Made by a program: the position numbers and the translations under genes. A DNA stretch of 64,000 nt from NCBI GenBank assembly GCA_050733355.1, contig JBOHSY010000473.1:1095-65094 (forward strand), written 5' to 3'. A model generated the notes under the pieces. That model saw only the letters and a list, made by a program, of their open reading frames with translations. It was not told the origin of the DNA and made no database searches. The DNA is from Gemmatimonadales bacterium. Lineage in GTDB: Bacteria; Gemmatimonadota; Gemmatimonadetes; Gemmatimonadales; GWC2-71-9. Below, piece after piece: positions 103 through 63,180 of the stretch. Every line of letters starts with the position of its first letter. The stretch's first letter is position 1.

Positions 103-284
103 GGGCGGTACGGGCGGTAAGGGGTAAAGGGGTTGCACAGATGCAAGGGGGGCAGGGGGCGCACGCCCCTGCCGCCTTGTGACGTTCGCAACTCCCCTTC
201 CGCTTGTACCGCCTCGACCGCCTCGACCGCCTCGACCGCCTCTGCCGCCCTTTCGCCCCCTTGCCACCTGCTTACTTTACCCCC
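103..284. repeat. Tandem-unit inverted repeat element R1 (9-nt units GGGCGGTAN / NTACCGCCY) with central GC hairpin
   Basis: Left arm gggcggtac-gggcggtaa-ggggtaaag (103-129). Central palindromes ttgcacagatgcaa (133-146) and ggcaggggg-cgcacg-cccctgcc (151-173). Right arm is about 8 degenerate 9-mers (gtaccgcct, cgaccgcct x3, ctgccgccc, tttcgcccc...) at 207-284. Confidence 0.8.
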
Positions 285-1538
285 ATGGCGGATATCGTAG
301 TCCAGAAGACCGGCGAAGACGTCGCCTCCAGGTCCCTCCGCGTCACCGTTCCCGTCGAGCGAGTTCGGCAGGCAGAAGATCGCGCGCTCCAGTACTTCAG
401 CCGCCGGGCGCGGCTGCCCGGGTTTCGTCCCGGGAAGGCGCCGGCCGGAGTGGTCCGGAAGCGCTTCGGCGATCAGATCCGGCAGACCGTGCTCGAAGAA
501 GTGATCCGGGAGAGCTGGGCGACGGCCCAGAGCGCGGAGTCGCTCAAGCCCATCGCCGATCCGTCGATCAAGAATCTCAAGTTCGAGGATGGGAGTGCCA
601 TCGAGTTCGAGCTGCTGGTCGAGGTGCGCCCCGACATCACGCTGGAGCGCGTGGGTGGGTTCCGGGTCTCCCGGAGCGTCGCGACGGTGACCGACACCTC
701 GGTCGAGGAGCAGCTCCAGCGCATCCGCGAGCAGAAGGCGGCCTGGCTCCCGGTGGAGGGCACGCAGCCCGCGGCGGGCCAGATGGTGCGGGTCGAGGTC
801 ACCCCCATCGAGGACGGCGTCGCGGCGCCGGCCCAGCCGTATTCGCTCGTCCTGGGCGAGCAGCAGGCGGTGCCCGACCTGGAGGAGCGGATCATGGCGC
901 TCCTGCCCGGCCAGACGGTCGAGGCCGACATCCGCCTCCCGAACGACCATCCCGACGAGTCGCGGCGGGGCCAGACCCGCCGGGTCCGGGTCACGCTGCA
1001 CGAGGTGAAACGGCAGGAGCTGCCGGCATTGGACGACGGCTTCGCCCGCGAGCTCGGAGAATTCGATAGCCTTGCGGCGCTCCGCGCCGCCATCCGGCAG
1101 GACCTGGAGCGCGAGTCGGTGCGCGAGGCCGACGCTCGGGTTCGCCAGGCCCTCCTGGGCCAGGTCATCGAGGCCAATCGGATCCCGGCGCCCGACAGCC
1201 TGGTGCACCGCGTGCTGCACGGGCTGGCGCACGTGTACCGCGTCCCGGAGGAGCAACTGGAGGCCTTCGAGGCCCAGTTCCGTCCGGTGGCGGTCTCCCA
1301 AGTGCAGCGGGACCTGGCGTTGGACGCTCTGGTCGAGGCGCAGGGGCTCCGGGCCTCGGAGTCGGAGATCGACGAACGCGTGGCGGCGATGGCGACGGCA
1401 CGGAACCTGCCCGCCGGGGAGATGTACGCCACGTTGCAGAAGGCGAACCGGCTGTCGGAGCTCGAGCGGGGCATCACCGAGGACAAGGCGTTTGCCTTCC
1501 TGCTCCAACAGTCCACCGTTGACGAGGCGAGCACGTGA
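285..1538 (+). CDS. tig: Trigger factor
   Basis: ORF 204..1538. The first 27 codons translate repeat R1 (LDRLDRLDRL), so the start is placed at ATG 285 (MADIVVQK). GFRPGKAP motif and trigger-factor-like sequence; canonical tig-clpP-clpX order. Confidence 0.9.
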
Positions 1539-2179
1539 CGATGGCCACCTTGTATCCGCCGTACATCATCGAGCGCTCGAGCCGCGGGGAGCGGACCTAC
1601 GACATCTTCTCCCGACTGCTCATGGATCGGATCGTGTTTCTGGGCGCACCGATCAACGACGACGTCTCCAACATCATCATCGCCCAGCTCCTCTTTCTCG
1701 AGGCGGACAACCCCGAGAAGGACATCTACCTCTACATCAACTCGCCGGGCGGCGTGGTTTCGTCGGGGCTGGCCATCTACGACACGATGCAGCACCTCCG
1801 GGCGCCGGTGAACACGATCTGCATGGGGATGGCGGCGTCGATGGGGTCGTTCCTGCTCGCCGCCGGCAGCCCGGGCAAGCGGAGCGCGCTGCCGCACTCG
1901 CGCATCATGATCCACCAGCCGTCGGGCGGCACGCAGGGCACCGCGGCCGACATCGAGATCCAGGCGCGGGAGATCCTCTACCTCCGCTCGAAGCTGAACG
2001 CCATCTACGCCAAGCACACCGGACAGACCATCGAGACGATCGAGCGCGACATGGACCGCGACCGGTTCATGAGCGCCGAGGAAGCGCAATCCTACGGCCT
2101 GATCGACACGGTGTTCAACCCGCGCAAGGAGCTCGTCGCGACCGGCGGGAACGGCCAGAAGGCCTTGACGCCCTCCTGA
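1535..2179 (+). CDS. clpP: ATP-dependent Clp protease proteolytic subunit
   Basis: [20 protein letters not shown]..., catalytic region GMAASMG and IMIHQP. GTGA overlap with the tig stop (alternative ATG at 1541). Confidence 0.95.
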
Positions 2180-2228
2180 GTGGAGGGCAGGTTACCCGGA
2201 GCCGTTCACCCCAGCCGCGCGCCTCTAA

Positions 2229-3476
2229 ATGTCCAACGACAAGCACCTCCGTTGCTCGTTCTGCGGCAAGTCCAAGGACTCGGTCCGGAAGTTCATCTCG
2301 GGCCCGTCCGTCTACATCTGCAACGAGTGCATCACCCTCTGCAACGAGATCCTGGCGGAGGATGAGGAGCGCGAGGTCGCGGACAGCATCACGCAGGTCC
2401 CCACGCCCACCGAGATCAAGGACGTGCTGGATCAATACGTGATCGGGCAGGAGCGGGCGAAGCGGACCCTGGCCGTCGCGGTCTACAACCACTACAAGCG
2501 GATCAACGCGAGCAACGGCCGAGAGGCCGAGGTCGAACTCGACAAGTCGAATATCCTGCTCATCGGCCCTACCGGCGTCGGCAAGACCCTCCTCGCGCAG
2601 ACCCTGGCCCGCATTCTCGACGTCCCCTTCACCATCGCCGACGCCACCACGCTCACCGAGGCGGGGTACGTGGGCGAGGACGTGGAGAACATCCTGGTCC
2701 GGCTGCTGCAGGCCGGCGACTTCAACGTAGCCGAGTGCGAGCGGGGCATCGTCTACATCGACGAGATCGACAAGATCGCGCGGAAATCGGAGAACCCGAG
2801 CATCACGCGCGACGTCTCGGGCGAGGGTGTGCAACAGGCGCTGCTCAAGATCCTCGAGGGCACCGTCGCCTCGGTGCCTCCCCAGGGCGGCCGGAAGCAC
2901 CCGCAGCAGGAATACATTCAGATCAACACCAAGGACATCCTGTTCGTCTGCGGCGGTGCGTTCGACGGGCTGGAGAAGATCATCCAGGCCCGCACCGGCC
3001 GGCAGCAGATCGGCTTCGCGACCGCCAACGGCCCGAGCATGAAGGAGCTGGACAAGCAGAACCCGTTCGCCGAGGTCGAGCCGGACGACCTGCTCCGCTT
3101 CGGCCTGATCCCCGAGCTCGTGGGCCGGCTGCCGGTGAGCGTGGCGCTCGAAGCGCTGGACGAGGACGCGCTGGTCCGCATCCTGATCGAGCCCAAGAAC
3201 GCGCTCACCAAGCAGTACAAGAAGCTGTTCGAGCTCGAGGACGTGGGCCTCACCTTCCAGGACGAGGCGCTGCGGGCGGTGGCGGGCAAGGCCATCAAGC
3301 GCGGCACCGGCGCGCGCGGCCTCCGCAGCATCCTCGAGACCATGATGACGGATATCATGTTCGAGTTGCCAAGCAGGGATGATGTGCGAGAAGTGGTGAT
3401 CACCAAGGAGTGTGTGGCGGACGGGGTGGCGCCACTGGTGGTGACCGAAAGGGCCAGGGCAAAGAAGGAAGCGTGA
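2229..3476 (+). CDS. clpX: ATP-dependent Clp protease ATP-binding subunit ClpX
   Basis: N-terminal zinc finger CSFCGK...CNEC, Walker A GPTGVGKT, Walker [10 protein letters not shown], ClpX-typical length. Confidence 0.95.
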
Positions 3477-3481
3477 CGAAC

Positions 3482-3640
3482 AGGCGGTAGGGGCGGCAAA
3501 GGGCGGTAAAGACGGCAAGGTGGGCGGATGGGTCAAAGAAGGCTGCAAGGCGCATGCGCCCTGCGGCCTTTCGTACATGCCGACCCTGTACCGCCCCTAC
3601 CGCCCCTACCGCCCCTACCGCCCGTACCACCTACTTTCCC
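3482..3640. repeat. Tandem-unit inverted repeat element R2 (same 9-mer family as R1)
   Basis: Left arm aggcggtag-gggcggcaa-agggcggta-aagacggca (3482-3517+). Central near-perfect palindrome aaggctgcaaggcgcatgcgccctgcggcctt (3538-3569). Right arm ctgtaccgc-ccctaccgc x3-ccgtaccac (3586-3630+). Confidence 0.8.
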
Positions 3641-11938: not shown

Positions 11939-11988
11939 TCGGAGCAGTCCCCTTGGCACCGGCGATTCAGGGACCTGGATCTGGCGCA

Positions 11989-12684
11989 ATGAGTGAGGGC
12001 TCGAGGGACGTAGCGCGAGGCCGTTGGGTGAAGGGATTCGGGGCCGTCGCGGCCGCGCTCGGCTGGACGGCCCTCGCGCTGCAGTTCTACCTGTCCATGG
12101 GTCTATCCATCACCCGGGGCAAGGGGTTCCTCGGCGGGTTGATCACTTTTTTCAGCTATTTCACCATCCTGACGAACATCCTCGTCGCGCTGGCGCTGAC
12201 TGCCCCGCTGGTGCGTGTGCGATCGAGCGTCGCCGAGTTCCTTACGCGGCCGGTGAACACCGGCATCGCGGCAAGTATTGCCCTGGTAGGCGTCGCCTAC
12301 GCCTTGCTCCTGCAGCACATCTGGGATCCCAAAGGCCTCCAGCTCGTGGCCGACGGGCTCCTCCACTACGTGATGCCGGTGCTCTTCCTGGCGTACTGGT
12401 GGTTCGCGGTGCCGAGGGTCGACGTGCGCTGGGGCCACGGTTCGCGCTGGATGCTGTACCCTCTTCTCTATTTCTTGTACGCCATGGTTCGCGGCGCCCT
12501 GTCAGGCTTTTATCCCTACCCTTTCATCAATGCGAGTGAGCTTGGCTACCCGCGCGCACTCGCCAACGCTGCCGGCGTCCTGCTCGGTTTCCTCGCGCTC
12601 GCGTGGCTCCTGGTCGCCCTGGGACGACTCAAGCGCGCCGCGATCATCGCCGCCATACCCCCACCTGGGCGGCGTGCGCGATGA
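11989..12684 (+). CDS. Polytopic membrane protein (Pr6Pr-like)
   Basis: ATG 11989 after the preceding stop. About six hydrophobic helices; FFSYFTILTNILVALAL segment resembles the Pr6Pr family. Confidence 0.65.
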   Translation: MSEGSRDVARGRWVKGFGAVAAALGWTALALQFYLSMGLSITRGKGFLGGLITFFSYFTILTNILVALALTAPLVRVRSSVAEFLTRPVNTGIAASIALVGVAYALLLQHIWDPKGLQLVADGLLHYVMPVLFLAYWWFAVPRVDVRWGHGSRWMLYPLLYFLYAMVRGALSGFYPYPFINASELGYPRALANAAGVLLGFLALAWLLVALGRLKRAAIIAAIPPPGRRAR

Positions 12685-12818
12685 AACAGGAGGTGCCGAC
12701 ACCGGAGGCGATGTTGTCGCCGACCGGTCGCGAACCAGCGCGATCGGCCAGGCCGACCTACGCAAACGCCCGCCGGCCGACCTGATTCCGGTTCCCTGGC
12801 GACTTGAAATCACCGGAC

Positions 12819-15236: not shown

Positions 15237-15245
15237 GGAACCTCC

Positions 15246-15268
15246 CGCTCACCGCTCACCGCTCACCG
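15246..15268. repeat. Solo tandem array (CGCTCAC)x3
   Basis: cgctcac-cgctcac-cgctcac-cg spans the hisC stop and the hisC-hisB spacer. Same unit family as R10/R11, with no inverted partner within ~200 nt. Confidence 0.6.
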
Positions 15269-18660: not shown

Positions 18661-18723
18661 CGGCAGGCGGGCAGGCGGGCAGGCGGCCGCTCGATCGCCG
18701 GTCCGCCGGTCCGCCGGTCCGCC
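18661..18723. repeat. Paired tandem 8-mer arrays R3 (GCAGGCGG x3 ... CCGGTCCG x3)
   Basis: cggcaggcgggcaggcgggcaggcgg (18661-18686), spacer ccgctcgatc, gccggtccgccggtccgccggtccgcc (18697-18723). G-rich then C-rich arms, only partly complementary. Confidence 0.65.
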
Positions 18724-20535: not shown

Positions 20536-20701
20536 GAGGCGCGGTGGTCCGGTGAGCCCATCTCCGATCTGCGCCAGGAAGAAGACGAAACCGTGCGCGC
20601 GCGTCCGCCAGCTCCGGAGCGCGGAATCGGCCTGGGCCTCCTGCCGTCGCTCGACGCCTGCGCGGGCGAAGGCGAGAGCTTCGGGAGACTCCCATTGCGC
20701 C

Positions 20702-20807
20702 GTGAGAGGTGAGAGGTGAGAGGGAACAAGACGAACCCCATCCCCGCAACTGAGCGCCGCCAGGCCATGAGCGTTTTCCTCTCACCTCTCACGTCTCACC
20801 TCTCACC
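20702..20807. repeat. Tandem-unit hairpin R4 (GTGAGAG x3 / CTCTCAC x4)
   Basis: Left arm gtgagaggtgagaggtgagaggg (20702-20724), ~54-nt spacer, right arm cctctcacctctcacgtctcacctctcacc (20779-20807). Arms are complementary. Confidence 0.85.
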
Positions 20808-21387: not shown

Positions 21388-22919
21388 GCGCGGGAATCGA
21401 GGCCATTGTCGCCGGTGCCCGGGCGGGCGGCGCTATCGTACCGGTCACCCGCCAGGTGCTGCTCGACGGCGATACCCCGGTCACCGCCTTCGCGAAGCTC
21501 CACCGCGGCCCGTTCGGCTTCCTCCTCGAGTCGCTCGAGGGTGGCGAGCGGTGGGCGCGCTACACCTTCCTGGCCACCGACCCGCGGGAGGTCTTCCGCT
21601 ACCGAGGCCGCAACTGCGAGCGCTGGACCGCCGCCACGGGTTGGCGGCCGGAGGCCGAGGACGTCGCACCGCTCGAGCACCTCGGCCGCACCATGCGGCG
21701 CTACGCCCCGGTGGAGGTGCCGGGGCTGCCGCGCTTCGCCGGAGGTGCCGTCGGATACCTCGGCTACGACATCGTACGCACCATCGAGTCGCTGCCGTCC
21801 TCGCCGCCTGACGACCGCGGCCTGCCGGACGCGCTGCTCATGGTCGCCGACACCCTTCTCGTGCTCGACAACGTGTACAACCGCGCCACCGTGATCGCGA
21901 ACGTGGAGGTGCCCGAGGGTGCGGACGACACCACGCTGGCCGGCCTTCATGCGGCGGCGGAGGCGCGGATCGACGACTGGCTGGCGCGGCTCGCGGCACC
22001 GGCCACGACGCAGCCGCTGCCGATGACGCCGGTCGCCACGCCCGCGGTCACGTCGCCTTACGCCGACAGCCGCTTCGAGGACGACGTACGCCGCATCAAG
22101 GAATACATCGCCGCTGGCGACACATTCCAGACGGTGCTCTCTCGGCGGCTGGATCTGCCCGCGCCGGACCCGTTTCTCACGTACCGCTATCTCCGCGCCC
22201 TCAACCCGGCGCCGTATCTCTACTGCCTGCACTTCGAGGACCTGCACATCGTCGGCAGCTCGCCCGAGATCCTGGTACGGGTCGAAGAGGGAGAGGTCAC
22301 CCTCCGGCCCATCGCGGGCACCCGCCCCCGGGGCGACACGCCCGAGCGCGATGCCGCCCTCGCCGCGGAGCTCGAAGCCGACCCCAAGGAGCGCGCCGAG
22401 CACCTGATGCTGGTGGACCTCGGCCGGAACGACGTGGGCCGCGTCGCCGAGTTCGGCTCCGTCCACCTCACGGCGTTCATGACGATCGAGCGCTATTCGC
22501 ACGTCATGCACCTGGTGAGCGAGGTGCGCGGCCGGTTGCGGCCGGGCCTCGACGCAGTGGCTGCGCTTGCGGCGTGCTTCCCGGCCGGAACGGTCAGCGG
22601 CGCCCCCAAGGTGCGGGCCATGGAGATCATCGATGAACTCGAGCCAGTGCGCCGGGGCCCGTACGCGGGCGCGGTGGGCTACATCGGGTGGGGCGCGCAG
22701 GTGCTCGACACCGCCATTGCCCTCCGCACGTGCGTGATGCAGGGCGGACGCGCCTGGGTGCAGGCCGGCGCCGGAATCGTCGCCGACTCCGATCCCCACA
22801 CCGAGTTCCGGGAGACCGAGGCGAAGGCGCGGGCGGTACTGCTCGCGCTGGCCTTGGCGGAGGGAGAGGGCGGGAGGGGGAGGGAGAGGGCGGAACAGGG
22901 AAGACCGACCCCCAGGTGA
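21384..22919 (+). CDS. trpE: Anthranilate synthase component I
   Basis: TrpE-typical sequence (LLESLEGGERWARYTF..., GTRPRG, MHLVS, GAPK, RGPYAGAVGY). The last ~20 codons (AEGEGGRGRERAEQG) translate the left arm of R5. Confidence 0.9.
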   Translation: MSAGIEAIVAGARAGGAIVPVTRQVLLDGDTPVTAFAKLHRGPFGFLLESLEGGERWARYTFLATDPREVFRYRGRNCERWTAATGWRPEAEDVAPLEHLGRTMRRYAPVEVPGLPRFAGGAVGYLGYDIVRTIESLPSSPPDDRGLPDALLMVADTLLVLDNVYNRATVIANVEVPEGADDTTLAGLHAAAEARIDDWLARLAAPATTQPLPMTPVATPAVTSPYADSRFEDDVRRIKEYIAAGDTFQTVLSRRLDLPAPDPFLTYRYLRALNPAPYLYCLHFEDLHIVGSSPEILVRVEEGEVTLRPIAGTRPRGDTPERDAALAAELEADPKERAEHLMLVDLGRNDVGRVAEFGSVHLTAFMTIERYSHVMHLVSEVRGRLRPGLDAVAALAACFPAGTVSGAPKVRAMEIIDELEPVRRGPYAGAVGYIGWGAQVLDTAIALRTCVMQGGRAWVQAGAGIVADSDPHTEFRETEAKARAVLLALALAEGEGGRGRERAEQGRPTPR

Positions 22920-22973
22920 GCATCGGAGCCGCTCGGCGCGGCCCGCTCCCGCCCTCTCCCTCCCTCTCCCGCC
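22857..22973. repeat. Tandem-unit hairpin R5 (GGAGGGAGA-type / complement)
   Basis: Left ggcggagggagagggcgggagggggagggagagggcgg (22857-22893); right ccgctcccgccctctccctccctctcccgcc (22943-22973). Includes an 18-bp perfect pairing ggagggagagggcgggag / ctcccgccctctccctcc. Confidence 0.85.
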
Positions 22974-24525: not shown

Positions 24526-24613
24526 CCGGAAGAGCAGAAGAGCCGAGGAGCAGACGAGCGGATGGTGGAGTCGTTTATCTGCTCTTCCGCTCTGCGGCTC
24601 TTCTGCTCTTCCC
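24526..24613. repeat. Tandem-unit hairpin R6 (GAAGAGCA-type) between convergent genes
   Basis: ggaagagcagaagagcc (24528-24544) pairs perfectly (17 bp) with ggctcttctgctcttcc (24596-24612). Lies between the cyclase stop (24523) and overlaps the maf 3' end. Confidence 0.85.
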
Positions 24614-25636: not shown

Positions 25637-25728
25637 CCCCAAAGAGAGAAAGGGCACGAAGACAATCCGGCAAGTCCTGGCATCGGCGGGAATGACGTGA
25701 CCTTTGTGTTCTTCCCGCCTTTGTGGTT
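25637..25728. repeat. Degenerate purine-arm/pyrimidine-arm element in the divergent dtd / MBL promoter region
   Basis: ccccaaagagagaaagggcacgaagacaatcc (25637-25668) versus cctttgtgttcttcccgcctttgtggtt (25701-25728). Only roughly complementary; unit resembles the CACAGAG/CACAAAG family of R8/R9. Confidence 0.4.
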
Positions 25729-27870: not shown

Positions 27871-27905
27871 AAACGCCCCCGGACACACGTCCGGGGGCGC
27901 TTTGT
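27869..27905. terminator. Bidirectional rho-independent terminator
   Basis: aaaaa-CGCCCCCGGAC-acac-GTCCGGGGGCG-ctttg. 11-bp perfect GC stem (27874-27884 / 27889-27899) flanked by an A-run and a T-run, between the convergent GT4 and glmS genes. Confidence 0.8.
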
Positions 27906-29792: not shown

Positions 29793-31181
29793 TCAGGTCA
29801 GCGGTTCTCGCGCGGCGGCGACCAGGGCCTCCGCCTCGACGGCGGTCGGAGCCTCGGCGATCAGGCGGACGATGGGCTCGGTGCCCGAGGGCCGCACGTG
29901 CAGCCACCGGTCCCGCCAGGCGAGTCGCAGCCCATCGCTTTCGTCCACGATCGCATCGGGGAAGCGCCGCCGGAGCCGGTCGTAGAGCGGGGCCATCGCG
30001 GGCGCGCGGGGGCCCTTGGCCTTGAGGATCACGTACCGGGGCGAGGCGGCTACCACGCGGGAAAGCGATGCCCCAACCTTGGCCAAATGATGCAAAATCA
30101 AGGCCACCGCGAGGGGGGCGTCACGCCCGATGTGGAGCGTGGGCAGGATCACACCGCCGTTTCCTTCCCCGCCGATCACCGCCCGCTCGTCGCGGATGGC
30201 CCGGGCGACGTTGGCCTCCCCGACCGGCGCCCGGACCAGGCGGGCTCCGTGGTCGCGGGCTGCGTCCTCGACCACGAGGCTGGTAGACTGGTTGACTACC
30301 ACAGCCGGCACGGCGTCACTGTTCCCGCCCGTTCGCGCCCGCTCCCGCCCACGCCCGCTCAACACGGCTCGCACGGCGAGCGCCAGCGTGTAGTCCTCGC
30401 CCACGGCCGCGCCGGTTTCGTCCACCAGCGCGAGCCGATCTACGTCGGGGTCCACGGCGAAGCCGAGCTCGGCGCCGCTGTCCCGCACCAGTCGCCCCAA
30501 GTCGCCCAGGTTCTCGGACACCGGCTCAGGCGGATGGGGAAACCGCCCGTCGGGCTCCAGATGAATGCCGCTCACGCGGACACCCAGCCGCTCGAGGAGT
30601 GGCGGAATCGCAACACCTCCGGCGCCCCTGACGCAGTCCAGCGCCACATGAAACCGACGCGCGCGAATCGCTGCGACGTCGATCACGGGCAACGCGAGAA
30701 TGGCATCGAGATGCCGGGCAACCGCGTCCGGATCGTCGCGCACCCGGCCGAGACCGTCCCATGCGGCGCGCGCGGGGCCGGCGTCGGCCGTGGCGCGCAC
30801 CGCCGCGCCCGCCGCCGCGTCCAGGAAGATGCCGTCGGGGCCCACAAGCTTGAGCGCGTTCCACTCGATCGGGTTGTGGCTCGCCGTGATGACGAGCCCG
30901 GCGCCGGCGTGGTGGTGCTCCACCGCGAGCTGCGTCGTGGGCGTGGGCACGACCCCCAGGTCGATCACGTCGACACCGACGGACATGAGGCCCGCCGTCG
31001 CCGCGTGCGCGAACATGGGGCCGCTGGTACGCGCGTCACGGCCCAGCACCACGAGCGGTCGGCCCTGCGCGCGCGCCCACGCGCCCAGCGCCGCGGCGTG
31101 CCGCGCCACGAGCTCGGGCGTGAGGTCGGTGCCGACATGACCCCGCATCCCGGACACGCTGATCATCAGGGTGGCGGACAT
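29793..31181 (-). CDS. glmM: Phosphoglucosamine mutase
   Basis: Start ATG 31181 (MSATLMISVSGMRG). Active-site TASHNP and phosphohexomutase domain order. The 823-aa ORF in the track is an out-of-frame upstream extension. Confidence 0.9.
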   Translation of the reverse strand: MSATLMISVSGMRGHVGTDLTPELVARHAAALGAWARAQGRPLVVLGRDARTSGPMFAHAATAGLMSVGVDVIDLGVVPTPTTQLAVEHHHAGAGLVITASHNPIEWNALKLVGPDGIFLDAAAGAAVRATADAGPARAAWDGLGRVRDDPDAVARHLDAILALPVIDVAAIRARRFHVALDCVRGAGGVAIPPLLERLGVRVSGIHLEPDGRFPHPPEPVSENLGDLGRLVRDSGAELGFAVDPDVDRLALVDETGAAVGEDYTLALAVRAVLSGRGRERARTGGNSDAVPAVVVNQSTSLVVEDAARDHGARLVRAPVGEANVARAIRDERAVIGGEGNGGVILPTLHIGRDAPLAVALILHHLAKVGASLSRVVAASPRYVILKAKGPRAPAMAPLYDRLRRRFPDAIVDESDGLRLAWRDRWLHVRPSGTEPIVRLIAEAPTAVEAEALVAAAREPLT

Positions 31182-33548: not shown

Positions 33549-33575
33549 AAGGCGCGGAGGACGCGGAGAACAACC
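33549..33575. repeat. Solo purine-rich tandem array (GCGCGGAGGA-CGCGGAGAA)
   Basis: aaggcgcggaggacgcggagaacaacc resembles the cgcagaggcgcagggacgcggaggg segment of R9. No inverted partner nearby. Confidence 0.4.
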
Positions 33576-37443: not shown

Positions 37444-43812
<6,369 letters not shown>

Positions 43813-48420: not shown

Positions 48421-49096
48421 CCGGACCCCACAGCGCCGGCCGCCGCTCCACCCGTGCCGGATGCGTGCCCGGTGGCGGCGGCGGCCACGCGTGCCAGCCA
48501 CCGGGCGCGTCATCGTAGATCCGGATCGCAAGGCCGGGTGCTGCGCCCCGTCCGAGCCCGAGCCACCCTGCATCGAGCCGCAGCACCACGGTCCAACCCG
48601 ATCCTCCGCGCCGCTCCGCCGCACGCACGTCCCAGCCCGCCCCCGAACGCTCTTGGCCCAGCCGCCAGTCGGGGTCACCCTGCGGCTCGCCCCACTGCCC
48701 CGCGCGTCCACGATAGACCACGCTGCTGTCGAGTACCCGGCGGAAGTACCACTGGGAGTCGTCGTGCTGCGGCGACTCGGCGCCATCCCCCTCGGTATCC
48801 AGGCTCACGACAAGATCGTCGCCCCAGTAGGGCGTCGAGTCGGGAATCACGGCGACCAGGTAGACGCTGTCAGCGGTGCGGAGCAGCCACACCGAGGCCG
48901 TGCCCTGCCCCGTCGTCACCGCGATCTGCGCTGAGCCCCAGCTCGCGGAGTCGACCAGGTCGACCCTGGGCGCCTGCTCGACGGGGCGCACGGTCACAGT
49001 GTCCGGACCCGCGACGAGCGAGAGGGCGAGTACCGCGCCGGCGGCGGTCAGAAGCTGATGCTCACGCCGAGCCCGGCCGGGCGCACCCGGGTCCAC
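48365..49096 (-). CDS. Hypothetical secreted protein
   Basis: 243-aa ORF with a signal-like LLTAAGAVLALSLVAG and beta-rich Trp/Asp-rich sequence. Its 3' end overlaps the convergent GIY-YIG gene by 56 nt. Confidence 0.5.
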   Translation of the reverse strand: MDPGAPGRARREHQLLTAAGAVLALSLVAGPDTVTVRPVEQAPRVDLVDSASWGSAQIAVTTGQGTASVWLLRTADSVYLVAVIPDSTPYWGDDLVVSLDTEGDGAESPQHDDSQWYFRRVLDSSVVYRGRAGQWGEPQGDPDWRLGQERSGAGWDVRAAERRGGSGWTVVLRLDAGWLGLGRGAAPGLAIRIYDDAPGGWHAWPPPPPGTHPARVERRPALWGPVRPTVPAGSSGAAPPGAP

Positions 49097-49710
49097 CGCG
49101 GGCTCTTGATGAGCGCGCCCGTGGCGCCGGCACCCAGATACTCGAGCCCTTCGAGATAACCGGTATCCCCGTCGTCATGGTGGGCGAGCAGGAGCACGAC
49201 GGCCCCAGCCGCGCGATTCCCGCGCCGATCCCGAGGCCCATGGAGCACGTTCCGCCTCGACCCGGTCGCGATGTCGAGTCGTCTGATGTCGGCCGGGGAA
49301 TAGACCAGCGTGTGGGTGCGCTGGGTGATTTGATCCTGCTGCTGCTTGCGGCACTCGCGCGGCAGGCCAGGAAGCTGCGGAGCCATGCAGGAAAGCCCGC
49401 CCGGTAGCTCAGGGCGGCGCCCACCATCACGCGATGGATGCGGCGCTCGGTCAGTACCAGTTGATAGCGGGCGAGCAGCGAGATACCCCAGCGCGTAGCG
49501 GGAAAGAGATCGAGGCCCGTGCCGGCGCCGAGTGCGAACTCCGACTCGCTTCGGCTGAACTCGGGAATGGTTTCGTCGTCGAACCACATGTGGTAGATCC
49601 CCACCTCGGGACCTGCCGCGGCAGGAGGGGAGAGGGGCGAGATCGGCGGCGGCGAGCGTCGCGAGCACCAGCGTGGCGCGCCACGGAACCCGGTCCGGCC
49701 TGCGGGTCAT
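49048..49710 (-). pseudogene. Possible frame-disrupted small outer-membrane beta-barrel gene
   Basis: Signal peptide MTRRPDRVPWRATLVLATLAAA in one frame (ATG 49710, TGATG junction with the upstream gene). Barrel-like GIYHMWFDDETIPEFSRSESEFALGAGTGLDLFPATRWGISLLARYQL in a second frame (49604 downward). C-terminal ...YLGAGATGALIKSPRWTRVRPAGLGVSISF back in the first frame. Confidence 0.4.
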
Positions 49711-50806: not shown

Positions 50807-51780
50807 ACGAGTCGATCCGCGAGCGCGAAGAGGAAGACGGTCACGCTCATTACCCCGTTCATCGTGAAGAACGCGGCATCCAGCTTCGACAGGTCGCCGG
50901 GACGGACGAGGCGGTGCTCGTACACCAGGATGGCGGCCGCAACCGCCAGCCCCGCGAAGTACAGCGGGCCGAAGCCCGCCGCCCATCCGAACAGCGCGAG
51001 CGCCGGAATCGTGACCCCGTGCAGCAGCTTGGCCAGCAGGATCCCGCGCGCCTCACCCAGCCGAACGACGGCGCTCCGGAGGCCCTCGCTCCGGTCGAAC
51101 GCCTCGTCCGGCAGCGCGTAGAAGATGTCGAACCCAGCCACCCACGTGGCGACGGCCACGGTGATCGCCGCGAGCAGCCACCAGGGCTCGCTCCACGCCC
51201 CGGTCACGGCCAGCCATCCGCCGACGGGCGCGATCGCCAGGCTCAGGCCCAGCCAGAGGTGCGGCCACCAGGTAAATCGCTTGGCGAAGCTGTACGTCAT
51301 CACCCATGCGAGCGCCAGCGGACTCAGCGCCAGGCAGAGGGGGTTGAGCCAAGCGGCGGCCAGGACGAAGCACGCCGCGGCGACGAGCACCGACGCCCAC
51401 GCCTGCGGGAGGCTGAGCGCCCCGCGCGGCAGCTCGCGATTCCGGGTGCGCGGGTTCCGCGCGTCGTACTCGCGGTCGGCGATTCGGTTGAAGCCCATGG
51501 CCACCCAGCGCGCTGCCGAGAACGCGAGCATCACGAGGAGCACCGTGCGCGACGTGACCGGTGCCCGCATCGATGCGGCCACGAGGCCGAGCAGGGCGAA
51601 CGGGAGGGCGAAGAGCGTGTGGGGAAGCCTGACGAGGTTGGCGTAGCGGACGAGGAGGGATTCGCCCGAGAACGTCTGGCCTTCCTGGCCGGTGAGAGGT
51701 GAGACGTGAGAGGCGAGCGGGGGCTCCGGCGCAGGCGTCGGGCTCGTGAGGTCACCCCGGTACTCCCTCTCGCCTCTCAC
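50803..51780 (-). CDS. UbiA-family aromatic prenyltransferase
   Basis: NRIADREYDARNPRT (NxxxDxxxD) motif and ~8 TM helices. The only in-frame start is GTG 51780, inside the right arm of R7. Confidence 0.85.
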   Translation of the reverse strand: MRGEREYRGDLTSPTPAPEPPLASHVSPLTGQEGQTFSGESLLVRYANLVRLPHTLFALPFALLGLVAASMRAPVTSRTVLLVMLAFSAARWVAMGFNRIADREYDARNPRTRNRELPRGALSLPQAWASVLVAAACFVLAAAWLNPLCLALSPLALAWVMTYSFAKRFTWWPHLWLGLSLAIAPVGGWLAVTGAWSEPWWLLAAITVAVATWVAGFDIFYALPDEAFDRSEGLRSAVVRLGEARGILLAKLLHGVTIPALALFGWAAGFGPLYFAGLAVAAAILVYEHRLVRPGDLSKLDAAFFTMNGVMSVTVFLFALADRLV

Positions 51781-51808
51781 GTCTCACCTCTCACGGCTCA
51801 CCTCTCAG
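51691..51808. repeat. Tandem-unit hairpin R7 (GTGAGAG family, as R4)
   Basis: Left ggtgagaggtgagacgtgagaggcgag (51691-51717). Right ctcgcctctcacgtctcacctctcac... (51769-51808). 26/27 complementary. Spans the UbiD-like stop and the UbiA-like start. Confidence 0.9.
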
Positions 51809-53287
51809 CGGGAGTCGGATCCCAAGCCGAGACCACATCTCGTCCACCCGCTTCTTCGTCTCGTCGTCCATCGTGATGCGCTCCGGCCACTCCCGGTCGA
51901 ACCCTTCCTCTTTCCACTTCCGGGTGGCGTCGATGCCCATCTTGCTCCCGTAGGTGAACGCGCGGCTCGAGTGGTCGAGCACGTCCACCGGGCCCATGGT
52001 GAACCGCGTGTCACGCTCGGGGTCGATGTTGTTGAGCGCCACCCACCAGGCCTCGTCGGGGTCGCGCACGTTGACGTCCTTGTCCAGCACCACGATCACC
52101 TTGGCCAGCGACATCAGCCCCTGGCCCCAGAGCGCGTTCATCACCTTCCACGCCTGCCCCGGATACTGCTTGTCGATGCTGACGAACACCAGGTTGTGGA
52201 AGATGCCTGGCGCCGGCATGTGATAATCGACGATCTCGGGCACCGTGAGCCGGAGCAGCGGGAGGAAGATCCGCTCGGTCGCGTGCCCGAGGTAGTAGTC
52301 CTCCATGGGCGGCCGGCCCACGAGGGTGGCCGGGTACACCGGGTCCCGCCGCATCGTGGCCGCGGTGACGTGCACGGTGGGATAGTAGTCCGCGAGCGAG
52401 TAGAAGCCGGTGTGGTCGCCGAACGGCCCCTCGAGCACGAGCGCCTCGGCGGGATCGATGTATCCCTCGAGCACGATGTCCGCCTCGGCCGGCACGTCCA
52501 GGTCGCAGGTGATGGACCGGGCGAGGTCGACCGGCGACCGTCGCAGGAAGCCCGCGAAGATGAACTCGTCGATGGTGGGAGGGAGCGGCGCCGAGGCGGA
52601 ATAGATGCTGGCGGGATCGCCGCCGAGCGCGATCGCCACCGGCATGCGCTCGCCGCGCGCCGCCATCTCTCGCCAGTGCGCCGCACCGACTTTGTGCCGC
52701 TGCCAGTGCATCGCGAGCGTGTTCCGTCCGAGCACCTGCACGCGGTACATCCCGACGTTGCGGATGCCGCGCGCGGGATCCGTGGTGATCACCATCGGCA
52801 GGGTGATGTACGGGCCCCCGTCCTGGGGCCATGTCGTGAGGAACGGGATGACGGAGAGATCCACCTCGTCACCGCGCGCGACCGTGTGCTGGCAGGGCGG
52901 CTTCCCGCCCCGGACCCTGGGGGGGAACTTGGCCACCTCGGCCAGGCGCGGCAGCATGGAGAGCTTGCCCAGCAGGCCCTCGGGCACCTTGAGCTCGAGC
53001 AGCTCGCTGATGCGCCCGCCGACCTCGTCCAGTGCGTCGACGCCCAGCGCCAGGCACATGCGGCGCATCGAGCCGAAGAGGTTGATGGCGACCGGATAGG
53101 CGCTGCGCCGCCCGTCGTCGAGCAGCACATGCTCGAAGCGGAGCGCCGGCCCGCCGCCCGGGCTCTTCATGCACCGGTCGGCGATCTCCGCGATCTCGAG
53201 CCGTGCCTTCACCGGCTGCGTCACCCGCACCAGCTCGCCGATCTTCTCGATCTCGCGGACGAACTCCGTCAGGTTCTCGATCGCCAT
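51791..53287 (-). CDS. UbiD-family (prenyl-FMN dependent) decarboxylase
   Basis: 498 aa, UbiD-like throughout (MAIENLTEFVREIEKIGELVRV...). The last codons (PLRGEP-stop) lie in the right arm of R7. Confidence 0.9.
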   Translation of the reverse strand: MAIENLTEFVREIEKIGELVRVTQPVKARLEIAEIADRCMKSPGGGPALRFEHVLLDDGRRSAYPVAINLFGSMRRMCLALGVDALDEVGGRISELLELKVPEGLLGKLSMLPRLAEVAKFPPRVRGGKPPCQHTVARGDEVDLSVIPFLTTWPQDGGPYITLPMVITTDPARGIRNVGMYRVQVLGRNTLAMHWQRHKVGAAHWREMAARGERMPVAIALGGDPASIYSASAPLPPTIDEFIFAGFLRRSPVDLARSITCDLDVPAEADIVLEGYIDPAEALVLEGPFGDHTGFYSLADYYPTVHVTAATMRRDPVYPATLVGRPPMEDYYLGHATERIFLPLLRLTVPEIVDYHMPAPGIFHNLVFVSIDKQYPGQAWKVMNALWGQGLMSLAKVIVVLDKDVNVRDPDEAWWVALNNIDPERDTRFTMGPVDVLDHSSRAFTYGSKMGIDATRKWKEEGFDREWPERITMDDETKKRVDEMWSRLGIRLPLRGEP

Positions 53288-53319: not shown

Positions 53320-53523
53320 AACCACCGAGGACACCCAGAGAACACAGAGAAACGTCAACGACAACGCAGAGGCGCAGAGAAACTGGTGAGGTTGTGGTCT
53401 CACGTCCGAGCTTTCGATGACTGGGAATGAGACCACAAGAAATTGCCCCCATACGTCGGCGCCTCTGCGTCTCTGCGGTTCCGCTGTTGCAGTGCCCCGT
53501 GTCCTCCGTGTCCTCTGTGGTTC
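53320..53523. repeat. Long (~200 nt) imperfect hairpin R8 (CAGAGRA / CACAGAG units)
   Basis: Left arm 53320-53402 (aaccaccgaggacacccagagaacacagag...cgcagaggcgcagagaaac...ggttgtggtctcac). Right arm 53429-53523 (gagaccacaag...gcgcctctgcgtctctgcg...gtgtcctccgtgtcctctgtggtt). Outer 15 nt are 14/15 complementary. Confidence 0.85.
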
Positions 53524-57569: not shown

Positions 57570-57573
57570 ACCC

Positions 57574-59004: not shown

Positions 59005-59069
59005 TCACAGAGGACCCAGAGAACACAGAGGACCACCTATTGAACGCAGAGGCGCAGGGACGCGGAGGG
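59005..59069. repeat. Solo half-element R9, homologous to the left arm of R8
   Basis: tcacagaggacccagagaacacagaggaccacc...aacgcagaggcgcagggacgcggaggg. Shares ccagagaacacagag and aacgcagaggcgcag (15/15) with 53330-53380. No complementary arm nearby. Confidence 0.8.
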
Positions 59070-60209: not shown

Positions 60210-60215
60210 GGGGGC

Positions 60216-60446: not shown

Positions 60447-60499
60447 ATGCGGACGCTAATTCCTAGTTCCCTTGTCGGCAATATACTGCCGCGCCGGCA

Positions 60500-61522
60500 T
60501 CATGGGCGTCCGTTTCCGGCCAGGTAGGCTCGCGCCGCCGAGAGCACGGTGGCCTGGACCTCCGCGAGCGAGCCGACCAGGGCCAGGCCGGCGGCCTTGG
60601 TATGCCCGCCCCCTCCGAACTGCCGGGCGAACGCCGCCACGTCGACGGTTCCGACCGACCGGAGTGACACCTTCACGCGCCCGGCCGACACCTCGCGGAA
60701 CAGCAGAGCCATGCGCACGCCATCGACCGACCTCGGGTACTCGACGACGCCGTCGAGATCGTCCGAGGTGAGGCCGAACCGCTCCACGGCTCCCGGCGGG
60801 ACGGTCAACCAGGCAAGCCCGATATCGGGCTCGACCACCAGGGTCTGCAGCGCTTCCCCGAGGAGCCTCGGCCGGCCTTCCGGCGCGCGCGCGTACACGT
60901 CGAGATAGATGCCCTCCGGGTCGAGCCCGGTCTCGAGCAGTTCGGCGGCGATCCGGAGCGTGCGCGGCTGCGTGTTACTGAAGCGGAAGCCGCCGGTGTC
61001 GGTGAGGAGCGCGACGTAAAGAGCGCGCGCGGCGGGCTGCCCGAGCTGCCACCCGTTCGCGAGGGCGACCTCGAAGACCAGCTCGCCGGTCGCGGACGCG
61101 GTGGGATCGACGTACCGCGGTCCGGGGGGAAGCGCGCCCTGGCTCACGTGGTGATCGATGCACGCCACCGGCACGCCGCGCTCCCGCACCGCCTCGGCCA
61201 GCATGCCCAGCCGGCCGAGCTCCGAGATGTCGAGCACGACAATGACGTCCGCGCGCCGGATCTCCTTCACCGCCTCCGGCGTGCGGTCGACGCCGGGCAG
61301 CTCGTCGAACAGAAACCGGAACCGGGTCGGGGTGGGCGTCGGATTGGTGACGCTGACGTCGAGCCCCCGCGCGCGCAGCAGGTGTGCGAGCCCGACCTCG
61401 CTGCCGAGGCCGTCGCCGTCCGGGTTGACGTGAGTCGTGAGGCAGACCCGCTGCCCCGGCTGGAACGCGGCCGCGAGCGCGACGGCCGCGGCGCGATCCG
61501 CGGCACTCAGGGTGGAGGGCAT
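60500..61522 (-). CDS. DHH/DHHA1 phosphoesterase (NrnA-like)
   Basis: Start ATG 61522. HVNPDGDGLGS, DHH (IDHHVS) and GGGH motifs. The upstream 20 codons translate R10. Confidence 0.8.
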   Translation of the reverse strand: MPSTLSAADRAAAVALAAAFQPGQRVCLTTHVNPDGDGLGSEVGLAHLLRARGLDVSVTNPTPTPTRFRFLFDELPGVDRTPEAVKEIRRADVIVVLDISELGRLGMLAEAVRERGVPVACIDHHVSQGALPPGPRYVDPTASATGELVFEVALANGWQLGQPAARALYVALLTDTGGFRFSNTQPRTLRIAAELLETGLDPEGIYLDVYARAPEGRPRLLGEALQTLVVEPDIGLAWLTVPPGAVERFGLTSDDLDGVVEYPRSVDGVRMALLFREVSAGRVKVSLRSVGTVDVAAFARQFGGGGHTKAAGLALVGSLAEVQATVLSAARAYLAGNGRP

Positions 61523-61535
61523 GGAGGAAAGATAA

Positions 61536-61606
61536 GTGAGCAGTGAGCAGTGAGCGGCCAGACGACTCCGGACACTGCCCACCGCTCACTGCTCACTGCT
61601 CACTGC
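61536..61606. repeat. Tandem-unit hairpin R10 (GTGAGCA x3 / TGCTCAC x3)
   Basis: gtgagcagtgagcagtgagcgg (61536-61557) pairs perfectly (22 bp) with ccgctcactgctcactgctcac (61582-61603). Confidence 0.9.
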
Positions 61607-61620
61607 CCATTGCTTGCAGT

Positions 61621-63057
61621 TTACCGCCGCGCCAGCCGGCTGTGCGTCCGCCCGTACACGAAGTAGAGGACGAGCCCGAGGACGAACCAGATGATGAGCC
61701 GCCGCCACGTGCTCCAGGGAAGCGAGATCATCAGATACAGGGCCGAGATCGCGCCCATTGGCGCCGTGAACCAAACGATTGGCACTTTGAATGGACGCGG
61801 GAGACCCGGCTCGCGGACGCGGAGGACCAGGATGCCGATGGAGACGATCACGAACGCGAGCAAGGTACCGATGGAGACCAGGCTTCCCGCCTCGCGCACC
61901 GTGAGGAGCGCCGAGAAGATCGCGACACCGATGCCGGTCACGATGGACGTGATCCAGGGAGTCCGGAACTTCGGATGCACGGCGGCCACGAACGGCGGCA
62001 GGAGCCCGTCCTTCGACATCGTCCAGAAGACCCGCGACTGACCCAGCAGCATCACGAGAATGACGGACGAGAGCCCGGCGATCGCGCCCAGCTTGATCAG
62101 ACCAGCGATCCACCCGAGGCCCGCGCGATCCGCCGCCTTGGCGATCGGGTCCGGCACGTCGAGCTCGGCGTAAGGGACAACCCCCGTGGCGATGCCGGCG
62201 ACGACGATGTAGAGCAGGGTGCAGATCAGCAGCGACCCGATGATGCCGATGGGCATGTCCTTCTGCGGATTCTTCGCCTCTTGTGCGGCGGTGCTCACGG
62301 CATCGAACCCGATGTAGGCGAAGAAGACGACGCCGGCGCCAGCCATCACTCCGGTCCACCCGAAGTGCTCGCGCACTCCGGTATTCTCTGGAATGAACGG
62401 GCGCCAGTTGGCCGGGTCCACCGCCTGCGCCGCGAGCGCGATGAAGAGCAGCACCACCGCGACCTTTATGATCACGATGACGTCGTTGACCGTCGCGGAC
62501 TCGCGGATGCCGATGACCAGCAGCGTGGTGACGATCGCGATGATGACGACGGCCGGCAGGTTGAACAGCGCGGTGACGGCGGAGCCGTCGGCCAGCGTGA
62601 CGACGGTGCCTCGCGCGGCCGTGAGCTCGGGCGGGATGTGAATCCCGATGCCGCTCAGAAACGACACCACGTATCCCGACCAGCCGATTGCTACGGTGAC
62701 GGCGCCGAGCGCATACTCGAGAACCAGGTCCCAGCCGATGATCCAGGCGATGAACTCACCGAGGGTCGCGTAGCCGTAGGTGTAGGCGCTGCCCGCCATC
62801 GGTACGAGCGACGCGAACTCGGCGTAGCACAGCGCCGCGAAGACCGACGCGACGCCGGCGATGACGAACGAGAGTACCACGGCCGGCCCCGCGTTCTGCG
62901 CCGCGACCGTGCCGGTGAGCACGAAGATCCCGGTGCCGATGATCGCGCCGACGCCGAGCATGACGAGGTTGAGCGGCCCCAGCGCACGCCTGAGACTCTG
63001 GTCGCTGGCCGCCTCGGCCTGGAGACCGGTGATGCTCTTCCGGCGGAAGAGATCCAT
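61621..63057 (-). CDS. APC-family amino acid permease (cationic amino acid transporter-like)
   Basis: 478 aa, ~12 TM helices, N-terminal RALGPLNLVMLGVGAIIGTGIFVLTG signature-like segment. Confidence 0.9.
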   Translation of the reverse strand: MDLFRRKSITGLQAEAASDQSLRRALGPLNLVMLGVGAIIGTGIFVLTGTVAAQNAGPAVVLSFVIAGVASVFAALCYAEFASLVPMAGSAYTYGYATLGEFIAWIIGWDLVLEYALGAVTVAIGWSGYVVSFLSGIGIHIPPELTAARGTVVTLADGSAVTALFNLPAVVIIAIVTTLLVIGIRESATVNDVIVIIKVAVVLLFIALAAQAVDPANWRPFIPENTGVREHFGWTGVMAGAGVVFFAYIGFDAVSTAAQEAKNPQKDMPIGIIGSLLICTLLYIVVAGIATGVVPYAELDVPDPIAKAADRAGLGWIAGLIKLGAIAGLSSVILVMLLGQSRVFWTMSKDGLLPPFVAAVHPKFRTPWITSIVTGIGVAIFSALLTVREAGSLVSIGTLLAFVIVSIGILVLRVREPGLPRPFKVPIVWFTAPMGAISALYLMISLPWSTWRRLIIWFVLGLVLYFVYGRTHSRLARR

Positions 63058-63089
63058 GGGATCCTCTGGTTGTGGGTGATCGGAGCCGC

Positions 63090-63180
63090 GTGAGCAGCAA
63101 GCGGTGAGCAGTGAGCAGGGGCTACGGGGTCTACCCGGGCATTGGAATTCCCTGCTTACCGCTCACCGCTCACTGCTTAC
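63090..63180. repeat. Tandem-unit hairpin R11 (GTGAGCA family)
   Basis: gtgagcagcaagcggtgagcagtgagcagg (63090-63119) versus cctgcttaccgctcaccgctcactgcttac (63151-63180), ~80% complementary. The right arm contains the guaB stop codon. Confidence 0.8.

Follow-up and report, generated by a model that had tools for sequence, protein, structure and literature searches.

Tandem-unit hairpins at the gene junctions of a Gemmatimonadales genome: cargo-less elements akin to intervening sequences?

What kind of element keeps its architecture while its sequence changes from one locus to the next? The question is raised by the long hairpins scattered over a 64,000-nt stretch of a Gemmatimonadales genome (contig JBOHSY010000473.1 of assembly GCA_050733355.1; hereafter the window), in which tandem copies of a short unit face tandem copies of the complementary unit. 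An earlier note, made from the letters of this stretch, had described them as a dispersed family of at least 11 paired loci and three solo arms. We confirmed about ten long gene-junction hairpins with complementary arms of 7–10-base units as a genuine feature of this DNA. As to their nature, we lean, on balance, towards the view that the window loci are cargo-less junction elements resembling intervening sequences and belonging to a widespread, poorly described class.

Tandem Repeats Finder (TRF) reports short-period arrays at each of the claimed loci. A strict pair was called where two TRF arrays of equal period (6–12 nt, at least 2 copies) lay within 200 nt of each other, the unit of one matching the reverse complement of the other by at least 75%; 30 dinucleotide-preserving shuffles of the window served as the null model. 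Seven strict pairs were found in the window (R3, R4, R5, R6, R7, R10, and R11), against one pair in a single shuffle and none in the other 29 (mean 0.03). The proposed architecture, a tandem array accompanied by its complementary array, is thus borne out, as is, within the window, its higher frequency than in shuffled sequence. The strict-pair loci are the strongest inverted repeats of the entire window; R2, R4, R5, R6, R7, R10, and R11 have folding z-scores of −5.5 to −10.5, and 23–76 pairs are predicted per stem. The longest perfect Watson-Crick runs of R5, R6, R7, and R10 measure 18, 18, 26, and 23 bp, respectively, in agreement with the 17–26 bp noted before. A scan of the window at the Rfam gathering thresholds returned one tRNA as its sole match and no family at any element.

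The figure of 11 paired loci holds in part: seven are strict and R1, R2, and R8 are looser composites, with arrays arranged around an inner hairpin, whereas R3 is weak and the degenerate locus forms no significant hairpin (Table 1). No partner arm was found for any of the three solo arrays. TRF confirms two of them (15245–15268, and 59006–59030 within the half-element), and the third consists of two units only. The 9-mer class (CAGAGRA in the earlier note) was seen in R8 and in the solo arrays at 33549 and 59005, and the units at 25637 resemble it; the "R9" of the earlier unit list had no coordinates and is presumably the half-element 59005–59069. Altogether there are 14 loci per 64 kb, and on a rough gene map of the window based on G+C at third codon positions (GC3), elements occupy 12 of the 34 gaps of at least 40 nt, or about one-third. 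At least six units occur in these 64 kb: GTGAGAG, GTGAGCR, GGGCGGTAN, GGAGGGAGAG, GAAGAGCA, GGCAGGCG, and the CRCNGAGRA class.

Table 1. Hairpin loci and solo arrays of the window, and small genes enclosed by arrays of the same kind in other genomes. Positions are unstranded; the elements are palindromic. MFE, minimum free energy (kcal/mol); z, folding z-score against shuffles; IR, inverted repeat.
Feature	Position	Units and arms	Setting	Pairing and folding
R1	103-284	left GGGCGGTAN units; inner GC-rich hairpin ~149-178; right ACCGCCTCG x3.9 (TRF 102-123, 208-242)	composite; from tRNA-Leu (14-98) to tig start codon (285)	arms partly complementary only, common core GGCGGT/ACCGCC; MFE -83, z -2.4
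R2	3482-3640	R1 unit family; GGGCGGTAA-type units and TACCGCCCC x4.4 around inner terminator-like hairpin 3539-3570	begins 6 nt past clpX stop codon (3476)	MFE -90, z -7.0
R3	18661-18723	GGCAGGCG x3.1, then CGCCGGTC x3.5	ends at base before stop codon (18724) of minus-strand DUF5686-like gene	weak complementarity, longest perfect run 5 bp; z -2.3
R4	20702-20807	GTGAGAG x3.1, 54-nt loop, CCTCTCA x4.3	divergent region	IR 25 nt, 92% complementary; z -5.8
R5	22857-22973	GGAGGGAGAG-type units x4.3, then GCCCTCTCCC x3.3	trpE 3' end	18-bp perfect run; z -5.5
R6	24526-24613	GAAGAGCA x3.9, 13-nt loop, GCTCTTCC x4	between convergent genes; begins 2 nt past one stop codon, convergent maf stop codon (24575) inside right arm	IR 36 nt, 86% complementary; 18-bp perfect run; z -10.5
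R7	51689-51811	GGTGAGA-type units, then CCTCTCA x6	ubiD/ubiA junction, minus-strand genes	IR 38 nt, 89% complementary; 26-bp perfect run; z -8.0
R8	53320-53523	nested composite, cross-phylum 9-mer class; outer arrays CACCGAGGA/CCCAGAGAA/CACAGAGAA (CACAGAGRA), inner CGCAGAGG arrays (CGCAGAGR), central hairpin TTGTGGTCTCA...TGAGACCACAA	between ubiE and ubiD; stop codon 8 nt away	
R10	61535-61614	AGTGAGC x3, 24-nt loop, CACTGCT x6	amino-acid permease stop codon 6 nt away	IR 23 nt, 100% complementary; z -8.4
R11	63090-63182	GTGAGCA x4.1, then CTGCTCA x4.4; unit that of neighbour R10	overlaps guaB stop codon (63170)	IR 31 nt, 84% complementary; z -9.0
Degenerate locus	25637-25728	CACGAAGA / CTTTGTG, resembling 9-mer class	divergent intergenic	no significant hairpin; MFE -28.5, z -0.8
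Solo array	15245-15268	pyrimidine-rich; CCGCTCA x3.4 (100% matches, TRF), complement of GTGAGCG	across hisC-like stop codon	
Solo array	33549-33575	two purine-rich 9-mer-class units (GCGCGGAGGA CGCGGAGAA)	14 nt past stop codon of Cys/Met-metabolism gene	
Solo half-element	59005-59069	purine-rich; CACAGAGGA-type, then CGCAGAGG-type units; sub-array order of left half of R8		
GxxExxY gene	L050:11413-11829; L041:11436-11890; L022:3675-4100	in 9-mer arrays (CRCNGAGGA class)	Proteobacteria	
GxxExxY gene	L163:1445-1922; L164:1440-1927	in 9-mer arrays (CRCNGAGGA class)	Bacteroidota	
Four-helix-bundle (TIGR02436) gene	L161:33746-34290	between AGGGCAGG arrays	Gemmatirosa	
Four-helix-bundle gene	L168:470-1010	AGGGAGT/ACTCCCT arrays (STRR-like)	Nostoc edaphicum	
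Four-helix-bundle gene	L169	CAGGTGA/TCACCTG arrays	Anabaena	
Four-helix-bundle gene	L170	GGGAAAA/TTTTCCC arrays	Geminocystis	
Four-helix-bundle gene	L171	enclosed by array and complement	Azospirillum	

The anchoring point of the elements is the end of the gene upstream. All paired window loci except R4 touch a stop codon or a tRNA 3′ end or lie at most 8 nt from one. In a related set of 80 soil contigs (764 kb) fetched via UbiD (75–86% identity), the start of 21 of the 23 co-directional elements falls in the interval from −70 to +4 nt relative to the upstream stop codon, for most of them at a distance of 13 nt or less, and the next start codon is 7–870 nt away. The location at gene boundaries reported before is correct, although several elements also overlap coding sequence, namely R5 (trpE tail), R7 (ubiA head), and R4 (5′ end of the DUF5686-like gene). 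The trpE reading frame gains about 20 C-terminal codons from the left arm of R5, and its stop codon (22917–22919) falls inside the loop; relatives have no element at this junction. The purine-rich arm of R7, read on the gene strand, holds both the ubiD stop codon (51791–51793) and the sole in-frame start codon of ubiA (GTG, 51780), so that the loop and the other arm would be translated as an N-terminal extension of UbiA, 34 residues long. The ubiD stop and the ubiA start likewise lie inside the array in three related contigs (L099, L086, and L089). By N-terminal comparison, R4, at the 5′ end of its gene, occupies the site of the signal peptide that the DUF5686-like protein has in relatives. 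In this region (20690–20790) the window protein has no ATG upstream of AQWESPEAL, the conserved start of the mature part, and the gene may thus be N-terminally altered or use another start codon.

Elements that begin at or just past stop codons might be intrinsic, possibly bidirectional terminators or 3′-end stabilisers of the mRNA, their construction from repeats being incidental. The position of R6 between convergent genes would suit this explanation, as would the inner terminator-like hairpins of R1, R2, and an element of a related metagenome-assembled genome (MAG; L001:20272–20424). However, the short GC-rich stem with a U-tract that marks Rho-independent terminators is absent at the elements, no T-run follows any element in the window, and a terminator scan of 15–35 kb flagged only 27874–27899 and one intragenic site, leaving R3–R6 unflagged. 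Moreover, stems of 20–45 bp far exceed the length of a terminator stem, elements occur within operons (ubiE-ubiD-ubiA) and in divergent regions (R4), and R7 lies within the ubiA reading frame. We consider such a role improbable.

The region between R1 and its downstream gene deserves a separate remark. No Shine-Dalgarno-like sequence precedes the tig start codon (255–285, ...CTTACTTTACCCCCATG), and several genes located 3′ of elements are preceded by a pyrimidine-rich arm and not by a Shine-Dalgarno sequence; initiation in the window lineage may therefore be largely Shine-Dalgarno-independent.

The tandem-arm hairpin architecture is not peculiar to the window genome. The closest MAG, L001 (64% GC), has at least four elements built in the same way but from markedly different units (ATTGAAG-type at no fewer than three sites, AGGGAGT at two sites, and CAGCCGT). 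At the junction that carries the solo array 15245–15268 in the window, L001 has an AGGGAGT hairpin, and at the R6 site it has an element with a different unit, four other relatives having none. The UbiD-related soil contigs contain 31 real strict pairs (32 were detected, one of them in coding sequence) with more than 25 units, and the finished megaplasmid of Gemmatirosa kalamazoonensis about 20 elements with at least nine unit families in the 290 kb sampled. The architecture was also encountered in Proteobacteria, Bacteroidota, and Cyanobacteria. An assembly artefact is excluded because many metagenomes assembled independently, and also a finished genome, show this architecture, and the unit diversity among relatives upholds the view of a conserved architecture with a variable unit. 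Two arrays seen in this material illustrate further states. In the Gemmatirosa plasmid (L173:1979–2091, i.e., 201979–202091) a strongly asymmetric hairpin opposes three copies of CGTGGCTG to nine complementary copies, and one arm can therefore expand alone; a related soil contig (L096:4024–4110) has a long solo array of GGCGGTTG x10.9.

Arrangements of this kind have been recorded previously without explanation in Geobacter metallireducens and Xanthomonas, and also in the stem of the Coxiella intervening sequence. The class 1–3 "paired sites" of G. metallireducens comprise three to five tandem units of 7–9 nt and were guessed to be IHF/HU sites (Aklujkar et al., 2009; PMC2700814), while convergent GGGAATC array pairs of Xanthomonas were studied as G-quadruplexes (Rehm et al., 2015; PMC4692102). 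The window elements might accordingly be thought of as paired sites for a DNA-binding protein, either a global regulator or IHF/HU, or as G-quadruplex elements: inverted pairs of tandem short units resemble operator and iteron layouts (PMC2700814), and G-runs are present in R1, R2, and R5 (PMC4692102). We give these possibilities very little weight. The occurrence of more than 25 units among close relatives cannot be reconciled with a single sequence-specific protein, nor can the turnover of the unit at one orthologous site, and most units (GTGAGAG, GTGAGCA, GAAGAGCA, CACAGAGAA) cannot form a G-quadruplex. The window loci share with the Xanthomonas and Geobacter arrays, and with the short tandemly repeated repetitive (STRR) sequences of cyanobacteria, the presence of at least three tandem intergenic units of 7–9 nt with a complementary array at a variable distance. 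Those arrays have 3–14 units and lie in convergent orientation, one on each strand; from species to species they keep their positions but differ in length. In contrast to the one to three unit families per genome known there, the window holds at least six in 64 kb.

The turnover is documented 3′ of ubiA, where five contigs could be aligned (alignment A1); their flanks are conserved, and so, in part, is the loop. The unit is AATGCGG, ATTGCGG, or AACGCGG in all of the approximately four copies of the left arm, and the right arm carries the exact complement in each case. Over 30 pairs, 92.7% of the cells are paired, against 28–52% in slid controls; 7 of the 30 pairs changed on both sides, and none of 500 shuffles reached the observed covariation score. 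In other contigs the same site carries GGGGACG, CGGGAAA, GGGAGAG, GCGAGAT, or GGGGAAC. Concerted evolution of both hairpin arms is shown here, about eight copies having exchanged their unit at this one orthologous site, and the co-variation of the arms claimed earlier is thereby substantiated. Either replication slippage combined with intrastrand template switching or selection for pairing would be expected to produce such concerted change. Hairpins are known to be both created and repaired by template switching, which at quasipalindromes accounts for the homogenisation of arms, for double changes that compensate each other, and for the formation of a complementary arm from one already present (PMC8794818, PMC7202029). 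In two contigs (L148:12373–12499 and L155:12407–12533) a variant, AGTGCGG in one arm and ACTCCGC in the other, stands at the fourth ordinal position of both arms; these variants do not pair in the in-register hairpin, which suggests shifted-register copying between the arms.

The ubiD/ubiA junction indicates how an element may begin. In most relatives the stop and start codons overlap at this site. One contig (L082) has GGTGAGAGGTGAGCGG, that is, two units without a partner arm, and its ubiA begins at a GTGA overlap. The window and two further contigs (L099 and L121) have the full hairpin of (GGTGAGA)n, loop, and (CCTCTCA)n with 3.9, 6.4, and 7.4 copies, a difference in copy number between relatives, and L086 and L089 carry other units. 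The unit is itself a local module of Shine-Dalgarno sequence, GTG start, and TGA stop. The series found in relatives, from the overlap only through two units to the full hairpin, shows at the level of sequence comparison that elements can arise from the local junction sequence. At junctions which hold an element in the window, relatives often have a plain ATGA or GTGA overlap, and the reverse also occurs; elements are therefore gained and lost exactly at gene junctions. When occupied and empty junctions were compared (maf/dtd, hisC-like/pilB-like, and cyclase/maf), neither a target-site duplication nor any other target-site signature was found.

These observations could be accommodated by a pure mutational by-product, whereby slippage and intrastrand template switching build the hairpins in situ, with neither mobility nor function, 7–9-nt units escaping mismatch repair and junctions being weakly constrained. 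The match of the unit to the local junction module, the existence of intermediate states, the presence or absence of elements at ATGA/GTGA overlaps, the variable copy number, the co-variation of the arms, and the known capacity of template switching (PMC8794818, PMC7202029) are all in its favour. So is the absence of a strand-specific G-U bias: with respect to gene direction, the folding energy favours the sense and the antisense strand in about half of the elements each, and a comparison that took in G-U counts as well gave no consistent bias. This gives no evidence of selection on one transcript strand and fits a symmetric, DNA-level maintenance such as template switching. The by-product explanation is nevertheless rather unlikely in our judgement. 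In the window, R8 and the half-element 59005–59069 present two sub-arrays in the same succession. Three Gemmatirosa elements have near-identical arms of 28 nt with the same order of variant units and different loop tips, and the AT-rich unit ATTGAAG recurs at three or more sites of the 64% GC genome L001. The 9-mer class CRCNGAGGA, which is linked with GxxExxY genes (see below), is common to Gemmatimonadota, Bacteroidota, and Proteobacteria, and the anchoring to the upstream stop codon holds even in long intergenic regions. In addition, this 9-mer class (as CRCNGAGRA, in R8, 33549, and 59005) is found in Gemmatirosa and in beta- and gamma-proteobacterial MAGs; the right end of R8 (...CCGTGTCCTCTGTGGTTC) is identical over 18 nt to the end of a Gemmatirosa element (L161:1736–1810). 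The within-genome multi-copy families and the cross-phylum 9-mer argue that arms or entire elements are also copied to new junctions. Quasipalindrome template switching, being a mutational process, leaves the multi-copy and cross-phylum units unexplained when taken alone. Of the generating mechanism suggested before, slippage plus template switching or an element-specific enzyme rather than simple copying, the slippage and the homogenisation of arms fit the data, but copies also disperse.

Dispersal raises the possibility that the elements belong to one of the known mobile palindromes. They could be of the REP/REPIN type (REP, repetitive extragenic palindrome), mobilised by a RAYT, i.e., an IS200-like Y1 transposase, encoded elsewhere in the genome. 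As with REP, BIME, and REPIN elements, the palindromes are dispersed, extragenic, and close to stop codons at gene 3′ ends, their families are genome-specific, and neighbours tend to share units (R1/R2, R10/R11, and R8/59005). On the other hand, REPs are copies of one imperfect palindrome of 20–40 nt with a conserved head, whereas here the arms are tandem arrays, the unit differs by site with at least six families in 64 kb, and the loops are unrelated, so that the distinction from a single conserved REP-type palindrome drawn by the earlier note is maintained. No transposase-like domain, Y1 included, was detected among the approximately 50 open reading frames (ORFs) of the window, which is weak evidence as it covers only 64 kb of the genome, and the occupied and empty junctions differ by no target-site signature. 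We therefore regard a REP/REPIN nature as highly improbable. MITEs (miniature inverted-repeat transposable elements) are similar in being short, non-coding, and multi-copy with terminal inverted repeats; unlike them, the window elements have no target-site duplication at occupied versus empty junctions, and their arms change by units in situ. Membership was accordingly rejected for both types, each of which fails on its defining feature (the target-site duplication for MITEs, the single conserved palindrome for REPs). Furthermore, a scan for distant array pairs in the loci collected by that stage revealed no parent insertion sequence with such ends. Integron attC sites, whose R″/R′ core sites (RYYYAAC ... 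GTTRRRY) with extrahelical bases stand in a cassette array beside intI, were also considered and discarded: GAAC ... GTTC forms the ends of the 9-mer class, but such ends are missing from the other units, housekeeping operons flank the elements, and the window ORFs include no integrase.

A different relationship is suggested by small genes that lie inside the same kind of stem (Table 1). At three proteobacterial loci, purine-rich and pyrimidine-rich 9-mer arrays enclose an ORF of 125 aa which encodes a GxxExxY protein (TIGR04256, E = 1e-44), a family which we take to have a PD-(D/E)XK-like fold. Further GxxExxY genes were sampled from plasmid records irrespective of repeats; those of Bacteroides finegoldii (L163) and Bernardetia (L164) are enclosed by arrays, and that of Sphingomonas (L162) partly so. 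Array-enclosed GxxExxY genes are often located inside operons, e.g., fabD/fabG. The second gene to be enclosed in this way, here by tandem heptamers of the STRR type with their complementary arrays, belongs to TIGR02436, the S23p or 23S rRNA intervening-sequence protein family, and the AGGGAGT unit which brackets it in Nostoc is identical to a unit of the Gemmatimonadales MAG L001. When array pairs 200–4000 nt apart were sought in the loci collected by that stage, enclosure of a single gene was found only at L050 (GxxExxY); the other such pairs came either from adjacent elements that share a family or from repeats within coding sequence, those in Gemmatimonadota loci being of the former kind only.

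The 23S rRNA intervening sequence of Coxiella provides a precedent for such a structure. It has an S23p ORF within a 28-bp stem whose 5′ side consists of three to four tandem GACAGAT heptamers, variable in number between strains, and RNase III cleaves within this stem (PMC4990558). Like the intervening sequences of Coxiella burnetii and Leptospira, the window elements have terminal inverted repeats that form a stem of at least 20 bp. The tandem-heptamer arm is a further likeness to the Coxiella sequence, and genes for four-helix-bundle proteins are bracketed by such arrays in five genomes. Unlike the 23S rRNA intervening sequences, the window elements sit at the junctions of protein and tRNA genes, not in helix 25 or 45, and they differ from S23p-containing ones in having no ORF.

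On the reading that we favour, that of cargo-less elements akin to intervening sequences, the element is pictured as an imperfect palindrome of 60–200 nt at a gene junction, which normally starts at the upstream stop codon or a few bases off. Its 5′ arm comprises 3–7 tandem G-rich or purine-rich units of 7–10 nt, and the array complementary to these makes up the 3′ arm; the element being palindromic, this 5′-G-rich layout is identical on both strands. The arrays would evolve by slippage and homogenisation of the arms. Transcription in either direction would turn stems of 20–45 bp into double-stranded RNA stalks; as we infer, RNase III would process these, or they would serve as barriers at 3′ ends, separating or buffering adjacent cistrons. 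By analogy with the cargo-bearing forms, we further infer that the ORF-less elements would be related to them, and that they would be semi-selfish insertions which are tolerated, and not regulators that act through a sequence-specific partner.

Several observations weigh against this picture or restrict it. The coding overlaps of R7, R5, and R4 are more easily understood if the elements are tolerated insertions than if they are a processing signal under selection. The window also contains ordinary short hairpins and a canonical terminator (27874–27899), and the elements are thus not its sole 3′-end structures. The G-rich arm is the 5′ arm in 55 of 62 elements (not all independent), a preference that goes without explanation: stop codons in three frames were considered as its reason and rejected, as only 12 of the 62 5′ arms have stops in all three frames and 28 have none. 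No rRNA gene was detected in the window by the Rfam scan, and tblastn with 5 four-helix-bundle and 7 GxxExxY proteins gave no match in it; with neither cargo nor rRNA gene in the window, the link to intervening sequences rests on architecture. Identity of units supports it only for R8 and the solo 9-mer arrays. Finally, the association of GxxExxY genes with arrays is not general: the Treponema gene has a plain inverted repeat only, no arrays were found around the Prevotella gene, and two Gemmatirosa genes are followed or flanked by complete hairpins rather than contained within one stem.

A broader proposal, which we hold as a possibility and with clearly less confidence, is that the tandem-arm hairpins, the STRR-type sequences, the Xanthomonas and Geobacter arrays, and the ORF-bearing rRNA intervening sequences form one class of mobile junction cassettes. 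In the autonomous forms, the array stem may enclose either a four-helix-bundle (S23p/Avd-like) gene or a GxxExxY gene. REPs flank the RAYT gene, the 9-mer arrays possibly flank GxxExxY likewise, and by this analogy the GxxExxY protein may act on CRCNGAGGA arrays as RAYT does on REPs. The window elements may then be non-autonomous derivatives that subsequently evolved in place by slippage.

As for the surroundings of the elements, the window has a G+C content of about 70% and a housekeeping gene content, including tRNA-Leu, tig, clpP, clpX, a his cluster, a pilB-like ATPase gene, trpE, maf/dtd, glmS/glmM, purD, ubiE/ubiD/ubiA/ubiX, and guaB. Its TrpE is 76% identical to that of two uncultured Gemmatimonadales MAGs and its gene order is kept in six Gemmatimonadota contigs; these similarities place the window on the chromosome of a Gemmatimonadales bacterium from soil. 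A 2122-aa protein (37444–43812) combines Ser/Thr kinase, AAA_16 STAND-type ATPase, GAF, and PAS domains with a sigma-54 activator domain and a Fis-type HTH. ARAGORN predicts a 97-nt tRNA-Ser(cga) at 29801–29897, without Rfam gathering support and overlapping the C-terminal codons of a phosphoglucosamine-mutase-like gene on the opposite strand; this call is probably a false positive. Two regions (11939–12818, about 0.9 kb, and 48421–49709, about 1.3 kb) have no confident gene in the GC3-based map, and their longest ORFs are without a Pfam match.

The kind of element described here is known but neglected. The Xanthomonas and Geobacter reports proposed G-quadruplexes or IHF/HU sites and reported neither the co-variation of the arms nor a link to cassette genes, a literature search found no paper linking paired arrays, intervening sequences, and small genes, and a search with the unit sequences gave as its sole match a Bacteroides fragilis PCR primer that had chanced on such an array. 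For genome annotation, the elements displace gene starts and stops, as illustrated by the trpE tail, the ubiA head, and the lost signal peptide, and by analogy they may split operon transcripts. Their hypervariable arrays are markers for strain typing, and they offer a natural experiment, a clean case of concerted evolution of the two arms of a hairpin. If the explanation put forward here is true, it would account for the abundance of long heptamer and nonamer repeats in some bacterial phyla, for the origin of rRNA intervening sequences, and for the role of two very abundant orphan families, the "four helix bundle protein"/S23p and the "GxxExxY protein".

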